A stretch of DNA of 14,159 bases from a virus (Duplodnaviria > Heunggongvirae > Uroviricota > Caudoviricetes), in the IMG/VR virus record IMGVR_UViG_2859821903_000004, positions 1 through 14,159 of that record. The stretch is one strand, 5' to 3'. Shown in pieces: positions 10,024 to 10,432 of this stretch. The notes beneath the pieces are model-generated. The model was not told where the DNA came from. It saw only the letters and a program-made list of their open reading frames with translations, and did not search any database. Both the position numbers and the translations under genes were made by a program. Numbering within the stretch: position 1 is the stretch's first letter; each line of letters begins with the position of its first letter.

Positions 10024-10095
10024 GTTGGAGTCATTACCTGGGTGGGAAAGCCGACTGTAATTGTTAACTGGTTAACGTCACCTGGAGGCACTAGG

Positions 10096-10117
10096 CACCG
10101 CATCACAAAATTCACTT
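10096..10117. repeat. Right arm of the 22-bp perfect inverted repeat (CACCGCATCACAAAATTCACTT)
   Basis: Exact reverse complement of 9186-9207; the match stops on both sides. Confidence 0.8.
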
Positions 10118-10245
10118 CGGTGATGAAAGGAAAGAGAAAATGTTGAATGTAGCTATTGAAAACCAGAACGGGTGGAATTATAGTGCACCTGCACCTCATA
10201 AAACGGGGGCCGGGATTAGCACCCCGAAAGTTACTCGAGCGCATA

Positions 10246-10267
10246 ACCGCGCTGAAGCGGTTTTTTT
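10246..10267 (+). terminator. Terminator-like hairpin (ACCGC-GCTGAA-GCGGT) followed by T7, in the leader upstream of rha
   Basis: 5-bp stem with a 6-nt loop and a 7-T run at 10261-10267. An overlapping alternative stem (AGCGC-ATAACC-GCGCT) could compete with it. Confidence 0.3.
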
Positions 10268-10432
10268 ATGCGTAATGCACAGCCACATTCAAATTATGGT
10301 GAGGCGTGCGGGGCAGCCGCAAGGCTGGCCGGGTTCTCGAGTGACCGGTAGTGCTAACCCTGTGCGTCTCACCACCCATGAGATTAGCACCTCTGCTGGT
10401 GAGTTAATTAACTTATCACTTGAGGATGTCAT

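Follow-up and report, generated by a model that had tools for sequence, protein, structure and literature searches.

In the window analysed here, the whole 14,159-nucleotide (nt) stretch of a tailed-phage record (IMG/VR IMGVR_UViG_2859821903_000004), the segment 10156-10433, which lies immediately 5' of the antirepressor-like gene rha, is very probably an IsrK-C4 regulatory module of the type represented by seqA-CI-seqC in phage P4, by immI c4 in P1 and by isrK-orf45 in the prophage Gifsy-1. Its parts follow one another on the plus strand in the order promoter, 77-nt IsrK-type RNA with an intrinsic terminator, C4-type RNA, downstream targets and rha. An initial annotation of this DNA had described the stretch 10048-10432 as a structured leader of rha. 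A structured regulatory region has indeed been found; it comprises, however, also a promoter and two RNA genes, while the first ∼110 bp (10048-10155, GTTAAC sites included) are flanking DNA unrelated to the module.

The promoter scan has placed a sigma-70-like promoter (TTGAAA-17 nt-TATAGT, 10 of 12) at 10156-10184, and a matching -35/-10 pair occurs at the equivalent place in related loci and in Gifsy-1. Transcription would start at ∼10191, where the Rfam isrK match begins. The IsrK-type RNA, equivalent to P4 seqA, covers 77 nt (10191-10267) and matches the full-length model RF01394 with 64.7 bits (E 3e-12; gathering score 50). It consists of a 5' hairpin, a second hairpin that carries a target termed b1, a target termed a1 and an intrinsic terminator. 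A score above the gathering score, an own promoter and an end in an intrinsic terminator assign this RNA to the IsrK family; the scans have placed promoter and terminator in accordance with the Rfam boundaries. The terminator, AACCGC-GCUGAA-GCGGUU followed by a U run (10245-10267; hairpin 10245-10262 in the terminator scan), is contained in the isrK model as its 3' hairpin and corresponds to the terminator-like hairpin with seven T residues that had been noticed before. Folds of the nascent RNA contain, in addition, a small hairpin, AGCGC-N6-GCGCU (10238-10253, arms 10238-10242 and 10249-10253), which shares two bases with a1 and overlaps the 5' arm of the terminator. We regard it as a candidate anti-terminator on the basis of these predicted folds. 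The two mutually exclusive hairpins of the initial annotation are thereby recovered as a conserved feature, because a small hairpin overlapping the 5' arm of the terminator has been obtained for 18 of 20 loci, even where the terminator sequence is wholly different (e.g., in Vibrio phage O395). The CGGGG..CCCCG hairpin proposed around the same RNA is the minimum-energy pairing of the window copy; the family consensus, in contrast, gives two hairpins there, 10191-10210 and 10211-10226.

The C4/CI-type antisense RNA occupies 10292-10379 and has been recognised by RF01695 with 78.6 bits (gathering score 45, E 2e-14) over model positions 1-87 of 87. Its fold of -46.9 kcal/mol (z -4.15) agrees with the consensus, a long closing stem around two hairpins and a CACCACC tail conserved at the 3' end, and compensatory (double) changes are seen at 15 of the 27 C4 pairs across 20 loci. 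Two segments are exposed for pairing, namely the a' loop (GUUCUCGAGUGA, 10333-10344), which is the loop of the second hairpin, and the b' segment (AGUGCUAACC, 10350-10359), of which 10350-10357 form a single-stranded junction and 10358-10359 are part of the closing stem; GTGCTAAC sits in b', mostly in the unpaired junction. The full-length score, the stem with its compensatory changes and the two exposed segments with upstream and downstream targets are the sequence-level features by which the C4 family is recognised.

The targets of these segments account for the repeated motif of the initial annotation. The window has two exact copies of GATTAGCACC, one at 10214-10223 and the other at 10382-10391 (at least three matches with at most one mismatch arose in 9 of 200 shuffles), and GTTAGCAC, the complement of the repeated motif, is present on the minus strand at 10351-10358 as the sole copy in the window; the repeat finder has returned 10213-10222 and 10351-10360 as arms of an inverted repeat. 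These three elements belong together as b1, b2 and b', the first copy of GATTAGCACC falling in the loop region of the second IsrK hairpin. The b1 hairpin (10211-10226 in the Rfam consensus structure) presents (G)AUUAGCAC at 10213-10222, and the b2 target GAUUAGCACC at 10382-10391, 3' of C4, is an exact repeat of b1; both are complementary to b'. A second complementary pair, absent from the initial annotation, joins 10230-10239 (GTTACTCGAG) to 10336-10345 as an inverted repeat and defines the a1 target GUUACUCGAG (10230-10239), complementary to the a' loop. The same loop forms a duplex with the a2 target UCACUUGAGGAU (10415-10426), which contains the Shine-Dalgarno sequence of rha (GAGGA, 10422-10426), and a2 of related loci, too, has its end on or next to the Shine-Dalgarno sequence. 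The segments a' and b' are complementary, in colinear antiparallel order, both to b1/a1 within the IsrK RNA and to b2/a2 just 5' of rha. In the window both target sets remain fully complementary to C4, with RNAduplex energies of -35.1 kcal/mol for the upstream and -29.7 kcal/mol for the downstream target, and the minimum-energy fold of the whole leader includes the long-range helix between b1/a1 and a'/b'.

The comparison with rha upstream regions of other phages, which had been proposed as a check, has shown that motifs and hairpins are kept as matched, co-varying elements. The a and b segments vary among loci, always as matched triplets, and a1 co-varies with a'. Mean RNAduplex energies of a C4 with its own targets are -33.5 kcal/mol upstream (b1/a1) and -28.9 kcal/mol downstream (b2/a2), versus -20.9 and -19.2 kcal/mol with foreign targets, and in 18 of 20 cases the strongest duplex of a C4 RNA is that with its own upstream target. 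The specificity segments appear in mosaic combinations: the b type of the window (AUUAGCAC) is common to the ant module of the Stx2a phage F451 and its a type (CUCGAGUGA) to a Shigella flexneri prophage. The best foreign duplexes of the window C4 have been obtained with these two, at -30.4 and -29.5 kcal/mol, respectively, and cross-talk between co-resident prophages is possible.

The gene that the module would control, rha (10434-10979), encodes a Rha-family antirepressor-like regulator of 181 amino acids, which matches PF09669 (Phage_pRha) with E 3e-26 and 92.3 bits against a gathering score of 29.9; the product is also found in the Rha-like and anti-repressor families of PHROG. The homologous ATG serves as the start in loci in which the upstream frame is closed. 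A local hairpin (10376-10437) pairs CCUC at 10390-10393 with the GAGG of the Shine-Dalgarno sequence, and its outer helix (10376-10381 with 10432-10437) spans the AUG. The stretch 10375-10440 folds with -21.1 kcal/mol (z -3.44), and none of 200 shuffles was as stable.

In 143 phage records, DNA matching the leader between ∼10190 and the rha ATG (70-82% identity) precedes different genes. Among 20 related loci analysed with Rfam, IsrK is followed by C4 in 19 of the 19 that carry the leader, with a gap of ∼24 nt in most and of 21-58 nt overall; Gifsy-1 and P4 also contain both RNAs, with a wider gap in P4, which results in 21 other loci with the same order. The downstream genes encode Rha, ORF6N/P22_AR_C antirepressors, Bro-N proteins or derepression proteins of P4-epsilon type, and every assignable family is of antirepressor or derepression type; the small downstream gene of an N15-like locus, recorded as a secondary immunity repressor, has no significant Pfam match. 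Some IMG/VR contigs hold two C4 modules close by (L066, with two pattern matches ∼870 nt apart, and L144, with two modules). Related modules have other Rfam RNAs in their vicinity: an Arsenophonus contig contains two copies of sRNA-Xcc1 (L005, 645-728 and 2059-2145), and the Yersinia phage vB_YpM_44 contains ryfA (L023, 152-450). IsrK has already been equated with seqA and C4 with CI RNA, and IsrK-C4 pairs have been noted in lambdoid prophages (PMC3632133); for Gifsy-1, read-through, the processed RNA STnc1160 and the analogy to P4 have been described (Hershko-Shalev et al., 2016; PMC4825925).

While the parts, their order, complementarities, co-variation and predicted folds are given by the DNA and its relatives, the working steps may be modelled on P1, P4 and Gifsy-1. 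The module promoter would yield mostly the short IsrK-type RNA, ending at 10262-10267, and a fraction of the transcripts would read through the terminator and carry C4. From this read-through RNA C4 would be excised, as RNase P does in P1 and P4, whereas in unprocessed read-through RNA b1/a1 would pair in cis with a'/b'. On the read-through transcript rha would be silent by default, because Shine-Dalgarno sequence and start codon would be masked by the local hairpin, in which GAGG is paired with CCUC and the AUG is enclosed. Free C4 would pair with b2/a2, block the ribosome-binding site and prevent translation of rha. The overlap of the downstream target with the Shine-Dalgarno sequence points to translational control in the window. 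On nascent RNA, free C4 would pair with b1/a1 and displace the small anti-terminator hairpin, leading to more termination; as this pairing would favour termination, C4 may limit both its own synthesis and the read-through into rha, i.e., act autoregulatory. An excess of short IsrK RNA could serve as a decoy that titrates the C4 segments and opens the messenger, as in Gifsy-1. Binding of Hfq and trans-activation of the read-through messenger by IsrK are known only for Gifsy-1 (PMC4825925).

Several points weigh against an active module as depicted. The terminator is already present in the minimum-energy fold without C4, so that an anti-terminator role of the small hairpin would have to be kinetic; the short IsrK fold taken by itself is unexceptional (z -1.26), and the first IsrK hairpin has two mismatches in the window copy. 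The module is read here from sequence and predicted folds, the presumptive transcription start has been set by homology and a consensus scan, and the antirepressor role of Rha is suggested by family likeness. In none of 41 Rha-linked leaders is the open frame into rha interrupted by a stop codon, a feature which the module does not require. Furthermore, the prophage is interrupted by IS1, IS600-like and IS3-family elements; it is decayed, and the module may be idle.

This last point leads to an unlikely explanation, according to which the region is a genuine IsrK-C4 module by descent that has become an inactive relic stranded among insertion sequences. It is favoured by IS1 at 9271-10038, which is missing from an otherwise 99.7% identical locus of E. 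coli FDAARGOS_944, by an IS600-like element that starts directly 3' of rha, in the region 11039-13302, and by the rearrangement of the window beyond it relative to the FDAARGOS_944 locus, which 13017-13302 matches in inverted orientation. The upstream DicF-like RNA with its terminator (9129-9179) is degenerate, too, with 28.6 bits against a gathering score of 48. The module itself does not share this decay: all its parts are intact, both target sets still pair completely with C4, its own promoter lies 3' of IS1 and rha is a full-length open reading frame (ORF). We consider the IsrK-C4 module in front of rha, as described above, to be the far better account of these observations.

The host element of the module is a Rac/Qin-like lambdoid prophage, and the site of the module is taken to be its early-left region. 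IS1 (768 bp) is flanked by a 9-bp target duplication, TGGGTGGGA, at 9262-9270 and 10039-10047 (repeat finder); it stands 117 bp 5' of the module -35 and cuts the module off from the upstream prophage operon. The stretch 10058-10114 is found at 96-98% identity in ∼4,500 E. coli genomes as a spacer of dicF/dicB-type prophage regions. In the related locus L002, full DicF is present (61 bits), and module and rha have a truncated dicB fragment on one side and an intact dicB on the other, as though inserted. The spacer 3' of the DicF-like RNA contains a perfect 22-nt inverted repeat (9186-9207 and 10096-10117), whose arms would be ∼111 nt apart without IS1 and which is imperfect in two relatives (L002 and L003). 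It was considered as a part of the module and rejected, belonging to the dicF-dicB-like spacer and showing no compensatory change in the relatives; it may serve the dicF-dicB operon as a hairpin for RNA processing. The tandem GTTAAC sites of the initial annotation were likewise rejected as module parts: the two sites exist, at 10063-10068 and 10071-10076, 2 nt from where they had been placed, but the three copies in the window equal the chance expectation and the pair lies outside the module. By eye, CTGTaattgttaACTG at 10055-10070 (CTGT-N8-ACTG) resembles a LexA/SOS box whose second half-site has one mismatch; the sequence lies in the widely conserved flanking stretch, ∼100 nt 5' of the module -35. 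An IS3-family insertion sequence has its frameshift signal, an ALIL pseudoknot (RF01497, 116 bits), at 2635-2751. ARAGORN has found no transfer RNA or transfer-messenger RNA in 10000-10500, and a permissive Rfam scan of 8900-11100 has returned, beyond the module, just the weak DicF-like and sub-threshold c4-a1b1 matches, with no riboswitch or T-box.

Less probable than a relic is an explanation by coding, in which the region represents the N-terminal "Ash" domain of a 279-amino-acid Rha, as annotated by the NCBI pipeline PGAP and by Pfam, and motifs and hairpins are incidental. As the initial annotation stated, the frame is open from 10140 into rha, comprising exactly 98 codons between the ATG at 10140 and the rha ATG at 10434 (10140-10433), and PGAP takes it as the N-terminus of an 840-nt ORF. 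The 98-residue translation matches the Pfam family Ash, PF10554, with E 1.5e-15 (57.9 bits against a gathering score of 26) and PHROG 995 with E 2e-42, and it matches the N-termini of PHROG families; PF10554 is found likewise in "Rha" proteins of ST64B, mEp460, PhiR49_2 and Stx2_12E129. The frame is open and continuous with rha in 11 of 11 Rha-linked enterobacterial loci of a first set. In the 41 distinct Rha-linked leaders without a stop, counted from the transcription start to the rha ATG, the other two frames contain stops at 21 and 23 distinct positions. An in-frame ATG with a Shine-Dalgarno-like sequence lies ∼50 nt 5' of the start site in window-type loci, and several other upstream contexts provide, equally far from it, an ATG or GTG in this frame. 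The indels of Rha-linked leaders are multiples of three; this has been given little weight as evidence for coding, because the spacing is equally constant in classes that do not share a frame with the downstream gene.

The pattern of variation speaks against an Ash domain. Diversity at the three codon positions of the leader amounts to 0.28/0.28/0.30 in 11 loci and to 0.132/0.129/0.132 in 26 further leaders, whereas the Rha body shows 0.30/0.23/0.50 and 0.191/0.173/0.351, with the expected excess at the third position. Such an excess is absent everywhere in the leader, including the spacer with little RNA constraint. The translation scores above the PF10554 threshold, but the leader does not vary like protein-coding DNA, and the earlier impression that the open frame is unlike the Rha body is borne out by the lack of codon periodicity. 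Moreover, two Rfam RNAs with compensatory pairs lie in the stretch, together with a promoter and an intrinsic terminator, and the PF10554 match (residues 14-95) coincides exactly with the interval between the RNA start and rha. In loci with Ant, Bro-N, N15-like, Gifsy-1 and Arsenophonus copies of the module, the same frame is interrupted by stops at 27 distinct positions. P88-like copies of the P2 family, in which the derepression gene lies in a different frame, keep this one mostly open. The initial annotation had held that homologues with a conserved longer Rha would speak against a regulatory leader; the long frame is indeed kept open, but the RNA elements are real anyway, and such homologues cannot separate the alternatives.

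The origin of the family points in the same direction. The type member of PF10554 is the old "cI protein" ORF of P4, which overlies the CI RNA: the coding sequence of the "cI gene product" (8168-8584, minus strand) contains the Rfam C4 match at 8420-8507 and matches PF10554. The immunity factor of P4 is an RNA. One paper takes PF10554 as a marker of P4 epsilon, while the real epsilon matches PF25738. For the "Rha/Ash" proteins of Stx phages, the domain has been stated to have no known function (PMC8951638). A still longer version is annotated in mEp460-type phages, in which a 383-residue "Rha/antirepressor" has 120 extra N-terminal codons (mEp460 1141-1500; the same region occurs in L015, L019 and L022). 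A real N-terminal domain in these proteins has been rejected: the first 116 residues have no Pfam match, variation in the extra 120 codons is highest at codon position 2, and an unannotated ORF of 59 residues (mEp460 1290-1469) lies in the frame that fits this peak. The 383-residue annotation begins 120 codons too early, and the real gene there is in another frame. The Pfam family "Ash" and the N-terminus of the 279-residue Rha are largely a translation of the RNA module with no demonstrated protein domain, and IsrK-C4 DNA in translation seems to underlie several PHROG families as well.

What the coding explanation leaves behind is the frame itself. Since it is stop-free in all 41 leaders, from 5' of the module promoter onwards in the window, yet without codon periodicity, the rha frame seems to be maintained without conservation of the peptide. 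A conserved AUG inside C4 (10296, in the 5' stem), which is the equivalent of the orf45 start of Gifsy-1, is always in the rha frame among Rha-linked leaders. One may tentatively postulate, and we do so with more doubt than conviction, that Rha-linked modules are read by ribosomes as well: transcripts from the early promoter of the prophage could be translated from 10140 or from the AUG at 10296 through terminator and C4, which would prevent termination and folding of C4, give an N-terminally extended Rha and bypass the antisense lock of the lysogen. If true, one DNA segment would have two superimposed uses, as an RNA switch and as a "spacer" reading frame. The stop-free frame that lacks codon periodicity is a small, testable oddity.

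The attenuator likeness of the initial annotation holds for the terminator with its competing hairpin, but a classical ribosome-mediated attenuator, in which translation of a leader peptide selects the hairpin as in the trp operon, is hardly credible here: two overlapping hairpins precede a T run and are crossed by an open frame, yet the sole start codon 5' of the hairpins, 10140, precedes the probable transcription start, the translation of 10140-10267 contains by inspection no short leader peptide or run of regulatory codons, and the sequence beside the anti-terminator arm is a target that co-varies with the loop of an antisense RNA, so that control is most likely exerted by the antisense RNA and not by a leader peptide. 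A like arrangement, with CI RNA enhancing termination, has reportedly been found at the P4 t1 terminator by Briani et al. in 2000.

IsrK-C4 (seqA-CI) modules have been described in P4, P1/P7, N15 and Gifsy-1 and noted in lambdoid prophages, and the addition to regulation made here is small. The consequences for annotation are wider: the 279-residue Rha, the 383-residue "Rha/antirepressor" (mEp460, ST64B, cdtI and several Stx phages), "Ash" and the N-termini of several PHROG families represent, at least for the most part, RNA genes in translation, which calls for caution with papers that treat "Rha/Ash" as a two-domain protein of unknown function or PF10554 as a marker of P4 epsilon. With many a and b types shuffled among prophages, cross-talk becomes predictable from sequence.

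Regarding the known systems, P4 seqA/CI RNA (seqB)/seqC resembles the window in that Rfam finds isrK and then C4 in the same order, and in having an antisense RNA with complementary targets upstream and downstream and a terminator between the upstream target and the RNA gene. It differs in the ∼107 nt between the two RNAs and in the controlled genes, which are those of the epsilon and alpha replication/derepression operon. The main output of P4 is premature transcription termination. The immI system of P1/P7 (c4, icd, ant1/ant2; P1 compared by description) shares the C4 family, the pairing of a'/b' with a2/b2 at the ribosome-binding site of an antirepressor-type gene and specificity variants comparable to the hetero-immune types. 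The P1 proteins ant1 and ant2 are two in-frame products of one ORF, and they are a possible parallel to an extended Rha. In contrast to P1, the model of the upstream target, RF03163, reaches only 18.8 bits in the window against a gathering score of 46.7, and no separate ORF lies between C4 and rha, where P1 has icd between c4 and ant.

The isrK-orf45(STnc1160)-anrP locus of Gifsy-1 in Salmonella Typhimurium has the layout of the window: promoter, IsrK with terminator, ∼24 nt, a C4-family RNA, targets, and then an antirepressor-like gene with its Shine-Dalgarno sequence and ATG. The AUG in the 5' stem of C4, the orf45 start, is at +107 in Gifsy-1 and at +106 in the window, and the fold of the whole window leader shares the long-range helix of the inactive "structure A" (PMC4825925). 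The downstream gene, however, encodes an ORF6N protein, AnrP, in Gifsy-1 and Rha (PF09669) in the window; the TGA of orf45 overlaps the anrP ATG (...TTATGA), resulting in translational coupling, whereas the frame of the window is stop-free into rha; the a/b specificity sequences are unlike those of the window; and the Gifsy-1 module is located beside the late Q gene, that of the window beside a DicF-like RNA. As the coupled stop and start of orf45 are absent from the window, RF03163 stays below its gathering score and an icd ORF is lacking, the module is a copy neither of P1 immI nor of Gifsy-1; it is a Rha-linked member of the already known IsrK-C4 (seqA-CI) class.

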